From an uncultured Clostridia bacterium (GTDB lineage: Bacteria; Bacillota; Clostridia; Oscillospirales; Ruminococcaceae), in assembly GCA_938014915.1 (NCBI GenBank), contig CALLQQ010000043.1:1-47509 (forward strand): a stretch of 47,509 nucleotides of DNA, written 5' to 3'. The translations under genes and the position numbers were made by a program. This document shows, piece after piece, positions 37,097 through 41,138 of this stretch. Numbering within the stretch: position 1 is the stretch's first letter; every line of letters starts with the position of its first letter. The notes under the pieces were generated by a model that was given only the letters and a program-made list of their open reading frames with translations, was not told where the DNA came from and did not search any database.

Positions 37097-37125
37097 TTGC
37101 AATTTTCATTTTTTTAATGTATAAT
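37097..37125 (+). promoter_or_regulatory. Sigma-A-type promoter of the PilZ-DGC-ParA-ComFB operon
   Basis: The promoter reads TTGCAA - 17 nt - TATAAT. An untranslated leader of about 150 nt follows. Confidence 0.6.
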
Positions 37126-37285
37126 TTTTAGTATATATCATATAAAACAAGTGACTTGTGCTAATAAATCATTAACTATGACGGGAGACTTGGCAGTATT
37201 GCACAGTTATTCCAGTTAGTTTAATCGAATTTTAAGATCAGTAGCAACATTTGGATTGCTCGTGTGTTCAAGAGGAGGTCAATTA

Positions 37286-37963
37286 ATGTTAGAAAAGGGT
37301 AAAGTGCTAAAATTAGATGTGCTGGACATTAATAATAAAGTCATATTCTCCACCGACAGATTCGAACCGGGGAAGACCCTTTTCGGGAATGTTGACGATG
37401 CATTGCTGATTTTATTTGGTGAAGATATGCCCGAACTGAACAAAGGCACACCCGTGAAAATCATTTCACATATCATTAATGGCGACAGAATTATGAGAAC
37501 GGGCAGGATAACAATATCTACACATAAGCAAATGAATATCTGCGTGGGTAAGAAATGCGAAAAACTTGAGGAAAGGCGGAAGTTTTTTAAAGTTGCGGTA
37601 AAAGTGCCGGCTAGAATTCTTCTGTCGACACGGGGCGAAGAAATCACTGAATATCCTGATGGAATTAACGTCGTAGTGAGGGATATAAACATTGGCGGCG
37701 TTTTTATAGAAACGGAACATGAATTCGAAAAAGGAACGGAGCTATTGCTGGAAATGCGGCTAGACGGTGAGGAGATATGTTCCCCGTGCGAGATTCTTAG
37801 AGTGCAACATGGTAGCGGGGGATTAGAGGGGTATGGATGTAGTTTCCTGAAAATTTCCACACAGCAGGAGCAAATTATAGCAAGATATATTTTCAAGATG
37901 CAGCTTGAACATCGTAAAAAGTTGATTGGGCGAATTGGCGAGGAGCAAGACCATGAAGATTAA
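37286..37963 (+). CDS. PilZ domain protein (YcgR/MotI-like two-domain architecture)
   Basis: The C-terminal half has PilZ-type motifs EERRKFFKV and VVRDINIGGVFIE. It is about 225 aa, like MotI/YcgR. GGAGG lies 7 nt before ATG 37286. The ORF-track TTG 37256 has no SD. Confidence 0.7.
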   Translation: MLEKGKVLKLDVLDINNKVIFSTDRFEPGKTLFGNVDDALLILFGEDMPELNKGTPVKIISHIINGDRIMRTGRITISTHKQMNICVGKKCEKLEERRKFFKVAVKVPARILLSTRGEEITEYPDGINVVVRDINIGGVFIETEHEFEKGTELLLEMRLDGEEICSPCEILRVQHGSGGLEGYGCSFLKISTQQEQIIARYIFKMQLEHRKKLIGRIGEEQDHED

Positions 37964-39902
37964 ACATATAATTAGGATAGTTCTGGTGATTTTTATATTT
38001 GTGCCTATGCTGATTATGCTAATTGCAATTAGAGGGACATCGCAGCATTATACTATGGAGACGATTAAAGAGGGGTTGGAACTAACTGTTAAAGGTGAAG
38101 CGGATAATATATCCGCCGATATATCGAAGTTTAAACTTGATCTCAAATTAATATCGGACAACGGCGCATATAAGGATATAATGCATGATAGACGTCATGG
38201 TAATAAAATTGATAGCAATAAGGAGCAGCAGGTTCACCAGTATCTAGAATACGTGACGCAAAAAAGCGATTCCGTATTAGAGGCATCACTACTTGATACT
38301 GATGGCAAGGTGATATATTCATCGGACAAAGACATTGTAGGGAGTATATATGGGATACCGGATGATTTAGTATTTTCAGAAAAGGACTCCGTATATATTG
38401 GACATTCGCAGGATTACCTTAACTTTATGATGAAGACATTTGATGGAAATGACTTAATAGGATATGCAGAAGTGAAAGTTAAACTCAGCGATGTGCATTA
38501 CCCATTACTAACCCAGAATGTAAGCGGTGCCAAGTCCTTTATTTTATGGGACGATAATGTGATATTCGATTATAAAGATGGCGATATTGCCATTAGCGAT
38601 TTAGAAGATGATGGATTCAAAAAATTCTTAACTGAAACCTATGAGGGCAACTTAAAGACGCACGAATGTAGTGAGGGGAAAATAATAGCCTATTCGGCAA
38701 AGATTGCTGGCAGTTCGCATTGGTTTGTCGGCATGGTCGATTCTCGTGGGATGCATGGGCATACAACTCAGGTGCTAAAGCGCACATTGTTGCTGACATT
38801 GCCACTTTTTATTGTATTGTCCGTGCTTAGTTTCGTCATTGCTGATGTTGTGATTAAACCATTCAACAGGCTCATTGATATTATGAAGCGGATTAGAATG
38901 GGCGATAGGAGCGCACGTTTCGACATTAGTGGTGGCGGTGAGATAAGCAAAATCGGCAATGAATTCAATATGCTCATTGATGAAGTTGTGCGCAGTGAAG
39001 AAAGGCATAAAGTGATTAGCGGCATATCGGATAGCATGCTCTTTGATTGGAATGCTAGGACGCAGAGAATGTATATATCGGATAATCTATCGGAGAAATT
39101 CTCCATTTCAAAGGAATTGGCTGACGAGAGGGGAATATTAGCCTTTAGCGAATGTATACACGAGGACGATTTTGATAAGTTCTATGAAGATATTCAGCTG
39201 GCAATACAAAAAGAGAATGGAATCGAAAGTCAATATCGATTCAATCTAGCGACGGGCGATTATATATGGACATCACTCAAGGCAATGTGCATAACGGATT
39301 GGACGGGCGAGCCGACACATCTAATTGGGGTGTTACATGATATTGATGCCGATAAACGAAAGGAACTAATCCTATCTGAACGGGCAACGTACGATTATTT
39401 ATCACAGCTATATAATAGAGAATCATTTGAAAAGAAGCTTGGCGCCCAGCTTGACAGTGCAATGAAGAATCAACTTAGCATAGCGATTTTGTTTATCGAC
39501 CTAGATGATTTCAAAGATATTAATGATAATTACAGTCATGCCGTCGGCGATGAGGTATTGAAATTTGTCGCTGATACGATAAAGAGCAAAATCACGGGCA
39601 AGGGATTCGCTGGGCGATTCGGCGGTGATGAATTCGTTGTTTGCATTACAGACAATGAAAGTGTTGAAAATGTCGAAGAATTCGCCACGGGCATTATCGA
39701 TAGCTTAAATGAAGGATTTTATTCTGAATCTGGAAATCACTTTAAAGTTGAATGTAGTATCGGAATAGCAATTTCCCCAGATCACGGGAGGGCGATTCCT
39801 GAATTATTCATGGCGGCGGATGATGCAATGTATCATGTTAAGAAAGATGGAAAAGGTAATTATCACTTATACGATCAGGATAAGAATAATTTCTCCAACT
39901 AA
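37953..39902 (+). CDS. Membrane sensor diguanylate cyclase (TM, extracytoplasmic Cache-like domain, TM, HAMP, PAS, GGDEF)
   Basis: It has two TM helices flanking a sensor domain of about 255 aa. A HAMP-like segment (KPFNRLIDIMKRIRMGD...GNEFNMLIDEV) and a PAS-like segment follow. The GGDEF domain has an intact GRFGGDEF active site and an FIDLDDFKDIND metal site. ATG 37953 follows GAGGAG and overlaps the PilZ gene by 11 nt. Confidence 0.85.
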   Translation: MKIKHIIRIVLVIFIFVPMLIMLIAIRGTSQHYTMETIKEGLELTVKGEADNISADISKFKLDLKLISDNGAYKDIMHDRRHGNKIDSNKEQQVHQYLEYVTQKSDSVLEASLLDTDGKVIYSSDKDIVGSIYGIPDDLVFSEKDSVYIGHSQDYLNFMMKTFDGNDLIGYAEVKVKLSDVHYPLLTQNVSGAKSFILWDDNVIFDYKDGDIAISDLEDDGFKKFLTETYEGNLKTHECSEGKIIAYSAKIAGSSHWFVGMVDSRGMHGHTTQVLKRTLLLTLPLFIVLSVLSFVIADVVIKPFNRLIDIMKRIRMGDRSARFDISGGGEISKIGNEFNMLIDEVVRSEERHKVISGISDSMLFDWNARTQRMYISDNLSEKFSISKELADERGILAFSECIHEDDFDKFYEDIQLAIQKENGIESQYRFNLATGDYIWTSLKAMCITDWTGEPTHLIGVLHDIDADKRKELILSERATYDYLSQLYNRESFEKKLGAQLDSAMKNQLSIAILFIDLDDFKDINDNYSHAVGDEVLKFVADTIKSKITGKGFAGRFGGDEFVVCITDNESVENVEEFATGIIDSLNEGFYSESGNHFKVECSIGIAISPDHGRAIPELFMAADDAMYHVKKDGKGNYHLYDQDKNNFSN

Positions 39903-39955
39903 AATAGATGGAAAATATAACGAATGAATATCATTTGTTTGTGGAGGGGCAAAAG

Positions 39956-40735
39956 ATGGCGAAAGTGATCGCAATAACTAATCAAAAGGGCGGCGTCGGT
40001 AAAACGACGACTGCCTGTGCCCTATGCGGGAAATTAAGCATGGACGGCGCAAGGGTGCTAGGTGTCGACCTCGATCCGCAAGGGAATTTCAGCTTCAGCC
40101 TGGGCGCAGAAAGTGAAGAAAATTACACCGTGCATGATTTATTCACGTCAAAGGCTTCAATTGAGCAGGCTATCCAAACGACGGATACTTGCGATATAAT
40201 TTCATCGAACATTCTACTTAGTGGAACGGAACTTGAACTAACTCAAGTGGGGAGGGAGTATATCCTGCGTGAACAACTTGGTAAAGTCAAGGATAAATAT
40301 GATTACATCATTATAGATACGCCGCCCGCACTCAGTATTCTAACGATAAATGCCTATGCTGCCGCCGATGATCTTATAATACCAATGACGGCCGAAATAT
40401 TAAGTTTGCAAGGAATATCGCAACTAAAAGAAACAATATTCGCAGTGAAAAAATACTACAATCCTCATCTTGATTTGCGGGGGATATTGCTAACTAAATA
40501 TAACCGAAGAACAAATTTAGCTAAAGAAGTTGAGGAGTTAACGCAAATTATCGCACGTCAACTTGAAACACGTGTTTTCGATACGAAGATTAGCCAGAGT
40601 GTCGCCGTTGCGGAAGCTCCAGCACATTCAATGACGTTGATAGAATATGCACCACGGGCACGGGCGACGCAGGATTACATTGCTTTTATTGATGAATTAT
40701 TAGGAGGGCGCAATGTCGAGAAAGAGAAAAAGTAG
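39956..40735 (+). CDS. ParA/Soj/MinD-superfamily P-loop ATPase (orphan; no parB nearby)
   Basis: It has the deviant Walker A NQKGGVGKTTT plus DLDPQGN and IIIDTPPAL (Walker B). GGAGGGG lies before ATG 39956. Confidence 0.85.
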   Translation: MAKVIAITNQKGGVGKTTTACALCGKLSMDGARVLGVDLDPQGNFSFSLGAESEENYTVHDLFTSKASIEQAIQTTDTCDIISSNILLSGTELELTQVGREYILREQLGKVKDKYDYIIIDTPPALSILTINAYAAADDLIIPMTAEILSLQGISQLKETIFAVKKYYNPHLDLRGILLTKYNRRTNLAKEVEELTQIIARQLETRVFDTKISQSVAVAEAPAHSMTLIEYAPRARATQDYIAFIDELLGGRNVEKEKK

Positions 40736-41138
40736 CAAAACGGCGCATGTTCTCAAGCTGCTGACAAATTCAAGTGATAATGTAAACCCGATTATTAACG
40801 ATGGATTCAAAGAAGAAGTAATTCTTTCACGCACCACGTCAAAGGCGGATTCCCAGCAAAATGATGGGGCTAAGCCCGTTGCAGTGAATGTAATATCGGA
40901 GTTAGTATATGAGATAATGCCGGAGGTTCTAGCAAGATTTAATTGCTGTACTTGCGATATATGCCAGGCAGAAATTTCAATAAAGGCGATGGACGAGCTT
41001 GGCGCACAATATATACCAATTATTAATGAGGATTCGCTTCAACATCTCAACCACATTAAGGATGAAAAGCGCCCTACCGTCACAAGAAAACTTGTTTCAC
41101 TTGCATTCAAATATAGGGACATGACTAAACATATCTAA
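40713..41138 (+). CDS. ComFB-domain protein with an N-terminal extension
   Basis: VISELVYEIMPEVLARFNCCTCDICQAEISIKAMDELGAQYIP matches the Cys-cluster core of the ComFB domain (compare the 20696 paralog). GGAGGG lies upstream, and the gene overlaps the ParA gene by 23 nt. Confidence 0.65.
   Translation: MSRKRKSSKTAHVLKLLTNSSDNVNPIINDGFKEEVILSRTTSKADSQQNDGAKPVAVNVISELVYEIMPEVLARFNCCTCDICQAEISIKAMDELGAQYIPIINEDSLQHLNHIKDEKRPTVTRKLVSLAFKYRDMTKHI

Follow-up and report, generated by a model that had tools for sequence, protein, structure and literature searches.

In the 47,509-nucleotide (nt) contig CALLQQ010000043.1 of an uncultured Clostridia bacterium, hereafter the window, four genes encoding a PilZ protein, a sensor diguanylate cyclase, a ParA ATPase and a ComFB-like protein lie directly upstream of the flagellar flgB operon. 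Comparison with related loci shows that this operon is an evolutionarily conserved, real unit, whose ParA and ComFB-like genes form an invariant pair that is never found apart. The operon probably controls motility. We read it as an accessory operon, conserved among flagellated Clostridia of Oscillospiraceae type, that links cyclic di-GMP (c-di-GMP) to a ParA-type switch on motility, and to this reading we assign an evenly balanced confidence.

All four genes are on the plus strand. They encode a 225-amino-acid (aa) protein of predicted two-domain MotI/YcgR type (PilZ; 37286-37963, longest open reading frame [ORF] from 37256), a 649-aa membrane diguanylate cyclase (37953-39902, longest ORF from 37926), a 259-aa Soj-like ParA ATPase (39956-40735, longest ORF from 39908) and the 141-aa ComFB-like protein (40713-41138). 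These coordinates follow ATG starts chosen where ribosome-binding sites of the GGAGG type precede. The original prediction, made from the DNA letters of the window, described four co-directional and tightly packed genes, and its spacing is reproduced exactly: the PilZ and cyclase ORFs overlap by 11 nt, 53 nt separate the cyclase from ParA, and the ParA and ComFB-like ORFs overlap by 23 nt. Its placement of the genes upstream of the flgB operon is likewise borne out, with flgB, flgC, fliE, fliF, fliG and fliH, the start of the flagellar operon, at 41612-46129 on the plus strand, as identified from their ORFs and from the same genes in related loci. The "good promoter" that it proposed, a TTGCAA-17-TATAAT element at 37097-37125 (plus strand) matching 10 of 12 consensus positions, stands only in part. 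The site is present, and the block is invariant in the diverged relatives L002 and L044 while the DNA immediately upstream varies, which supports a genuine promoter. However, promoter-like matches in the region are not enriched over shuffled sequence (23 observed versus 22.8 expected), so the consensus match is no rarer than chance and the function of the site is suggested by its position and conservation. The four-gene operon is a transcription unit separate from the flgB operon.

The evidence that the operon is a real unit comes from 125 related loci, of which 35 were obtained by a ComFB-like alignment scan of species-representative genomes, 80 by a PilZ alignment scan of metagenome contigs and 10 through exact-protein look-ups. 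Clustering at approximately 90% PilZ identity reduced these to 46 lineages, and all ORFs of the loci were searched with the window proteins and with family hidden Markov models. The whole module is present in 39 of the 46 lineages, the incomplete loci all being cut by a contig end, and gene order and orientation are identical in every complete lineage cluster (39/39). This order holds at 30-40% protein identity, whether the loci were seeded by the ComFB-like or the PilZ protein. Two versions of the module exist: PilZ-ParA-ComFB-like in 25 lineages and PilZ-cyclase-ParA-ComFB-like in 14. A neighbor-joining tree of PilZ and ParA splits cleanly into a four-gene clade, which includes the window, and a three-gene clade. 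The 35 ComFB-seeded loci all derive from Oscillospiraceae, Ruminococcus, Huintestinicola or unclassified Clostridia metagenome-assembled genomes, and all named lineages among the 46 are Oscillospiraceae-type Clostridia. The original prediction had put its claim at risk on the co-conservation of the four genes; PilZ, ParA and the ComFB-like gene proved to be adjacent in all complete loci but one, which has no PilZ.

The most constant element of the module is the pair formed by ParA and the ComFB-like protein. Their ORFs overlap by 23 nt in the window and by 4 nt, in an ATGA-type arrangement, in many other lineages, which suggests translational coupling. The ComFB-like protein scores 21 bits against Pfam ComFB (PF10719), under the cut-off of 25, and the same model matches 19 of 28 relatives, the best at 3e-19. 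The family is small, with 83 representatives among 1.8 billion at E ≤ 1e-3. In the AF2 model the C-terminal domain has a predicted local distance difference test (pLDDT) score above 90 and the N terminus a score near 50; the top five Foldseek matches of the model are chains of 4wai (Bacillus subtilis ComFB) and 8hja (CdgR), and a profile of the family run against the PDB matched 4wai alone. These data confirm a ComFB fold for the C-terminal domain (aa ~55-137). The CxCxxC motif of the window protein (C79, C81 and C84, equivalent to C25, C27 and C30 of the Bacillota zinc-type triad) is kept in 81 of the 83 representatives.

The best-conserved part of the ComFB-like protein is, however, not the ComFB domain but an N-terminal peptide (aa 4-37) that is both basic and hydrophobic. 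It contains two motifs, K-[TS]-[NH]-K-T-x-x-[VL]-[LM]-[KR]-L-[LI] and N-P-[IL]-[ILM]-[DN]-[EDK]-x-F-K-[ED]-E-[VIM]-I, in which K9 and T10 are conserved in 57 of 60 sequences, N25 and P26 in 59-60 of 60, and F32 and K33 in 56-57 of 60. The central residue of the V-L-K-L-L stretch is basic in 47 of the 60. The peptide is joined to the ComFB domain by a variable, disordered linker of ~15 to more than 200 residues. As described in PMC10241942, partners of ParA/MinD ATPases are usually encoded downstream of the ATPase and dock through a positively charged, disordered N terminus, and PMC12462528 gives the ParB motif as a hydrophobic run broken by one central lysine or arginine. The original prediction had called the ParA an orphan. 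That label probably does not hold, as the protein encoded downstream carries the features of a partner; the overlapping, never-separated genes and the partner-like N-terminal peptide lead us to read the "orphan" as one half of a ParA-partner pair. From these sequence features we infer that the ComFB-like protein is the cognate partner of the ParA.

Extended forms of the ComFB-like protein occur among its relatives (P0022, P0023, P0045 and P0054). Some relatives carry a Lys/Ala/Pro-rich repeat resembling histone H1 ahead of the N-terminal motif (a weak Pfam HC2 match), and others have acidic disordered linkers exceeding 200 residues. No fusions of the ComFB-like protein to ParA, PilZ or flagellar domains were found among these relatives, the extra length of the longer ones lying only in long disordered linkers or in extensions rich in Lys, Ala and Pro. 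Binding to DNA or another matrix, which the ParA has lost (see below), might be provided by the basic tails.

The ParA matches AAA_31 (E = 9e-55) and CbiA (5e-29) and has the deviant Walker A motif NQKGGVGKTT. Its best PDB match is 8ray (3e-46), followed by Soj structures. By residue mapping we identified 8ray as the Myxococcus xanthus ParA of PMC12462528, its numbering being offset by 19 from the published protein, as verified on D60A and six published residues. That paper places the ParB peptide in a hydrophobic pocket formed by V116, L150, L152, L155, L187 and L192. The equivalent residues of the window ParA are L, L, I, I, A and Y, respectively, and the partner-peptide pocket is thus predicted to stay hydrophobic. 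An R238E mutant of M. xanthus ParA lacks non-specific DNA binding. The equivalent of R238 (R189 in Soj) is an alanine in the window ParA, and the other family members examined have neither arginine of the PRNVR stretch. The C termini of the ParA family are short and unconserved and give no sign of a shared membrane-targeting helix. Taken together, sequence, fold and comparison indicate that the ParA is competent for ATP-sandwich dimerization, without the arginine for non-specific DNA binding.

The PilZ protein supplies the predicted link to c-di-GMP and to the flagellar motor. MotI (DgrA/YpfA) of B. subtilis and YcgR of Escherichia coli are PilZ proteins that act as c-di-GMP-dependent flagellar clutch and brake. 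The window protein matches PF07238 over aa 96-203 (E = 1e-15, 58 bits against a cut-off of 22.5), and its AF2 model, built on 45 relatives, has a pLDDT of 87 and shows two beta-barrels followed by a C-terminal helix. The best Foldseek matches of this model in the PDB, all of them full-length, are MotI/DgrA (5vx6, 5e-8), YcgR (5y6f, 1.2e-6), MrkH and PP4397. The protein is thus modeled with the two-barrel MotI/YcgR architecture, an N-terminal PilZN-like barrel preceding the PilZ barrel, although the Pfam models for PilZN and the YcgR N-domain gave no match to it. Its first ligand motif reads E-R97-R98-K-F-F-K102, that is, RxxxK, a conservative variant of the canonical RxxxR. The second reads D133-I-N135-I-G-G138, in which the serine of the canonical (D/N)xSxxG is replaced by asparagine in every aligned relative. 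R97, R98, K102, G138 and a GYGC motif are invariant in the 45 relatives, and this strict conservation of the variant motifs points to a functional site.

The cyclase is predicted to contain a first transmembrane (TM) segment (~aa 5-27), an ectodomain of ~250 aa, a second TM segment (~aa 276-300) and then HAMP, PAS and GGDEF domains. The GGDEF domain is matched over model positions 1-160 of 161 (PF00990, E = 3.9e-40; TIGR00254, 6e-41), PAS_3 and HAMP are matched at E = 4.5e-10 and 3.8e-6, and the match to dCache_1 is weak (18.7 bits against a cut-off of 45). The features that had been read from the letters are all present: the active-site motif GRFGGDEF is intact, the RxxD I-site is missing, its expected position five residues upstream reading TGKG, and the ectodomain lies between two hydrophobic segments ahead of HAMP and PAS. 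The cyclase looks active by its motifs, and the usual product inhibition is not expected of an enzyme that lacks the I-site. Full-length orthologs, with 29-32% identity over residues 1-649 and therefore including the ectodomain, lie between PilZ and ParA in 14 lineages of one clade. In contrast, unrelated GGDEF proteins encoded in the same loci share only the GGDEF domain with the window cyclase, at 41-59 bits. A recent, lineage-specific insertion of the cyclase gene is ruled out by the full-length orthologs in these 14 lineages, seen in PilZ-seeded loci. Sequence comparison thus indicates that in one clade the cyclase has long belonged to the module, as an orthologous component, and that the sister clade (25 lineages) lacks it.

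Two further observations concern cyclase genes in related loci. The cyclase gene is split into two ORFs in the close relatives L044 (6570-8566) and L003 (1-1356), and in L044 residues ~393-444 are missing. Either the assembly is wrong at this point or the cyclase is decaying, and the latter would fit its absence from the sister clade. Several four-gene modules also have a second GGDEF protein nearby, encoded on the minus strand (L043, 12992-15253; L093, 16877-18850; L109, 15203-16684). The one in L043 is a dCache-GGDEF-EAL protein and could be the missing eraser of c-di-GMP; no equivalent was seen in the window.

The module is repeatedly associated with flagellar genes. For 29 lineages both flanks of the module were available for assessment, and in 14 of these flgB is adjacent, in two orientations and in both deep clades: the flgB operon lies 220-510 nt downstream of the ComFB-like gene in 10 lineages and is divergent, upstream of PilZ, in the other 4. 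An association that survives rearrangement in this way argues for functional coupling. A further ORF lies two genes upstream of the operon in the window and diverges from it. Its 229-aa product (35682-36371, minus strand; here up229) is a predicted membrane protein with two TM segments. This protein is encoded beside the module in every lineage with flgB adjacency, and in the divergent arrangement its gene immediately precedes flgB and has the same orientation. up229 may belong to the system as a fifth component or may be an accessory protein of the flagellum. The ORF between up229 and the operon (195 aa, 36372-36959, minus strand), which is also divergent, is conserved in fewer lineages. Searches of Pfam, NCBIfam and the PDB gave no match for either protein.

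These components suggest how the system might work. The cyclase would raise c-di-GMP in response to an external cue, and the PilZ protein would be the main c-di-GMP reader, acting on the flagellar motor in the manner of MotI and YcgR. The ATP-bound ParA dimer would be bound and stimulated by the N-terminal peptide of the ComFB-like protein, and hydrolysis would free the peptide. The ComFB domain, a dimer in the known members of its family, would hold a target, which might be the PilZ protein, a component of the motor or the neighboring two-TM protein. Where or when the brake, or another flagellar factor, acts would then be set by the ParA ATP cycle. A precedent exists in B. subtilis, whose ComFB inhibits flagellar function (PMC12265714). 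In the three-gene clade the same trio would operate without a dedicated cyclase, presumably on c-di-GMP made elsewhere in the cell. A more specific version, which we put forward tentatively and hold to be possible rather than probable, is that the ComFB-like protein represents a new class of ParA partner, in which the fold of a second-messenger receptor bears a docking peptide for ParA, and which together with a non-nucleoid ParA and a MotI-like PilZ protein would constitute a c-di-GMP-gated spatial switch with a local cyclase supply. Such a switch would deliver the brake to, or withhold it from, flagellar basal bodies, or would set the number and placement of flagella.

Several findings weigh against the view that the operon links c-di-GMP to a ParA-type switch on motility. 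In 15 of the 29 assessable lineages flgB is not beside the module, so the expectation that the four genes stay next to flgB is upheld in the 14 lineages described above and fails in the others, where the neighbors include, for example, metK, rluD, MBOAT/DHHW genes or nearby type IV pilus genes. The readers of the signal are also in question. In B. subtilis ComFB, D33, N40 and K41 bind c-di-GMP, and D33A and N40A abolish binding (PMC12448109). The equivalent residues in the window protein are E87, D94 and E95, and across the family these positions are mostly E, D/E and E/Q; at the N40 position asparagine is found in 8 of 33 three-gene sequences and in none of 50 four-gene sequences, which mostly have glutamate. 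With its contacts replaced, c-di-GMP binding by the ComFB-like protein is doubtful. The ligand motifs of the PilZ protein, as read from its sequence, deviate from the canonical forms as well. The proposal of one writer and two readers is therefore retained for a cyclase that looks active and for a PilZ protein of predicted MotI/YcgR fold, and is weakened for both readers by their altered ligand sites. No phosphodiesterase of EAL or HD-GYP type was found among the window ORFs scanned; this finding speaks against calling the switch "self-contained". The sister clade operates without the cyclase. One locus, L040, is alone in lacking PilZ while retaining ParA, the ComFB-like gene and flgB. In its PilZ place (7086-9191) is a 701-aa, largely low-complexity protein rich in Lys, Glu and Pro, whose C terminus appears SHOCT-like by eye. 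The N-terminal peptide of the ComFB-like protein could instead be a membrane-binding helix or bind a target other than ParA. Finally, all lineages come from one family-level group, and shared ancestry inflates the apparent conservation.

Other explanations of the locus must be weighed against a motility switch. The trio could position or regulate a cargo other than the flagellum, be it type IV pili, the division site, chemoreceptor arrays or a machine that makes polysaccharide, and its adjacency to flgB would then reflect a gene order inherited within one bacterial order. The 15 lineages without flgB beside the module, type IV pilus genes being among the other neighbors, would fit this, as would the inflation of conservation within a single family-level group and the presence of ComFB genes within pilus operons in Thermoanaerobacterales (PMC12448109). 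However, flgB adjacency survives the change from a downstream to a divergent arrangement and does so in both deep clades, up229 moves jointly with flgB and the module, and the structures closest to the PilZ protein are those of the motor inhibitors MotI and YcgR; on this evidence we judge a non-flagellar cargo unlikely. Somewhat more doubtful still is transcriptional control, in which ParA and the ComFB-like protein would act on a transcription factor or promoter of flgB and so affect flagellar expression rather than motor function. There is an analogy in FleN, a MinD/ParA-type ATPase that antagonizes the c-di-GMP-binding regulator FleQ. In both orientations the flgB promoter region is the immediate neighbor of the module, and in the lineage of the window the two are separated by a leader that is highly conserved and has a promoter and a terminator of its own (see below). 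In cyanobacteria, moreover, the ComFB protein CdgR is reported in a 2026 preprint to interact with two transcription factors. Against this, neither ParA nor the ComFB-like protein has a recognizable DNA-binding domain, the arginine for DNA binding is missing from the ParA, the neighborhood holds no conserved transcription factor, and B. subtilis ComFB inhibits the function of flagella and not their production (PMC12265714).

Two further alternatives are far less probable. A Soj-like ParA followed by a small protein whose basic N-terminal tail is flexible and whose C-terminal domain is dimeric resembles type Ib par loci, and the pair might accordingly be a partition cassette, with the ComFB-like protein as a ParG- or ParB-like centromere binder, left behind by an integrated mobile element. 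Yet no direct-repeat families and no iterated or meaningful inverted centromere-like repeats flank the genes, and on this ground such a cassette is rejected. The ParA also lacks the nucleoid-binding arginine, the chromosomal context is a stable, housekeeping one with no integrase or plasmid genes, and the link to PilZ and the cyclase is constant; we thus regard partition as very improbable. It is even harder to credit that four independent genes are juxtaposed by chance behind a fortuitous promoter match. Taken singly, genes for PilZ, GGDEF and ParA proteins abound in Clostridia, and promoter-like matches are, as noted, no commoner here than in shuffled sequence. However, the same order and orientation in all 39 complete clusters at 30-40% protein identity, the overlapping reading frames and the conserved promoter block refute chance juxtaposition.

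Between the four-gene operon and flgB, and outside the operon, lies a non-coding leader element (41190-41442, plus strand), recognized by its conservation, promoter and hairpin. It contains a promoter-like TTGACT-18-TATAAT sequence (41230-41259, plus strand), which at 11 of 12 consensus positions is the best in the region, and a hairpin of 13-16 base pairs followed by a U-tract, an intrinsic terminator predicted with RNAfold (~41399-41439, plus strand); ~140 nt of conserved sequence separate the two. The leader region (41190-41460) is 93% identical to that of L002 and 90% identical to that of L044, compared with 79-90% for the coding genes. The flanking intergenic DNA is 49-65% identical in these two relatives, with one flank at 82% in L044. 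RNAfold gives an energy of −41.7 kcal/mol (z = −3.4), and no ORF of at least 30 aa was found within the leader. Neither the window nor seven related loci had an Rfam match at the gathering score, and c-di-GMP-I and c-di-GMP-II riboswitches gave no match at E values up to 10 in 36950-41640; a known riboswitch in the leader of flgB or of the operon is ruled out by the lack of an Rfam match. A search with nhmmer found the element in close relatives of the window only, and in the other lineages a terminator directly follows the ComFB-like gene and precedes a promoter and short leader. Three near-identical copies of the leader are available. It may act as an attenuator or riboswitch peculiar to this lineage, it may be a small RNA, or it may be a conserved 3′ region that serves in addition as terminator of the four-gene operon.

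The remainder of the window is ordinary Clostridia chromosome, with gpr, spoIIP, metG, secA, trp genes and luxS, and no integrase or plasmid genes were seen among these housekeeping neighbors. An anti-phage defense system was also considered and is ruled out by the lack of a PADLOC system match, the PADLOC models matching no operon protein except ParA, and that one over just 36 residues of the P-loop. The genes gpr and spoIIP (14-1640, plus strand) are 35 kb from the module in the window, while in the three-gene clade (L001, L041 and L124) gpr, rpsT and spoIIP lie directly upstream of it, which points to a rearrangement in the lineage of the window. On the minus strand at 25836-30558 is a trp cluster of trpE, trpD, trpC, trpF and trpA, followed by luxS and a pseudouridine synthase gene. 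In this cluster trpB is absent between trpF and trpA, and trpG is missing altogether.

Each component of the operon thus comes from a known family, and the combination is new to the literature searched. No association of PilZ, ParA and ComFB was found there, and the statement in the original prediction that it knew of no described system with this four-gene composition agrees with our search. How c-di-GMP controls motility at the protein level in Clostridia is poorly understood, the best-known link being a riboswitch in Clostridioides difficile, and many ParA/MinD ATPases still carry the label of orphans, with partners unidentified. The locus offers a concrete and testable candidate pair, in which the putative partner of the ParA has a ComFB fold and a sharply delimited candidate docking peptide. 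Conserved gene order ties this pair to the flgB operon, a sensor cyclase and a PilZ protein resembling MotI, and the bacteria concerned are abundant in the gut, the rumen and digesters. If the pairing is true, it would be the first mechanistic output, a ParA ATPase, for the newly recognized ComFB family. It would also add a signaling-domain partner to the ParA/MinD repertoire and would suggest a route by which flagellin-bearing gut commensals switch motility.

Comparison with known systems places the locus close to several of them and identical to none. The PilZ protein is similar in size to MotI and YcgR, is predicted to share their two-barrel fold, has them as its best structural matches, and its gene adjoins flagellar genes. 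However, sequence identity to these proteins is only 14-16%, the family carries RxxxK and (D/N)xNxxG where MotI and YcgR have RxxxR and (D/N)xSxxG, and its genes always accompany those for a ParA and a ComFB-like protein, unlike the genes for MotI and YcgR. The ComFB-like protein resembles the ComFB/CdgR family, represented by B. subtilis ComFB and Synechocystis Slr1970 (PMC12448109, PMC12265714), in its fold, in the PF10719 match of most relatives and in the CxCxxC motif. It differs from B. subtilis ComFB in its conserved two-motif N-terminal extension and variable linker, both absent there, in the replacement of the ligand contacts D33, N40 and K41 by E, D/E and E/Q, and in the coupling of its gene to parA; the paper on the ComFB family contains no mention of ParA, Soj or MinD.

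At the DNA level the nearest parallel is the flgB leader of C. difficile, in which the c-di-GMP-I riboswitch Cd1 terminates flgB transcription (reviewed in PMC6366702). In both organisms c-di-GMP is tied to the flgB operon, in the window by prediction, and in the lineage of the window, too, flgB is preceded by a promoter, a long leader and an intrinsic terminator. In contrast to C. difficile, the window leader matches no c-di-GMP riboswitch, and the link to c-di-GMP would instead run through proteins encoded next door. With the pairs ParA-ParB, McdA-McdB, PomZ-PomX and MinD-MinE, as described in PMC10241942, PMC12462528 and PMC7993993, the window ParA shares the deviant Walker A motif and the predicted pocket. 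The gene for its candidate partner is, as in those systems, downstream and overlapping, and its product has an N-terminal peptide that is disordered, basic and hydrophobic, then a linker and then a domain that is dimeric in known members of the family. The window ParA is unlike the ParA/MinD systems in having no DNA-binding arginine and no evident membrane helix, and the pair is embedded in a c-di-GMP operon. Its partner, with a ComFB fold, lies outside the partner types named for ParA/MinD ATPases in the passages of PMC10241942 and PMC12462528 consulted.

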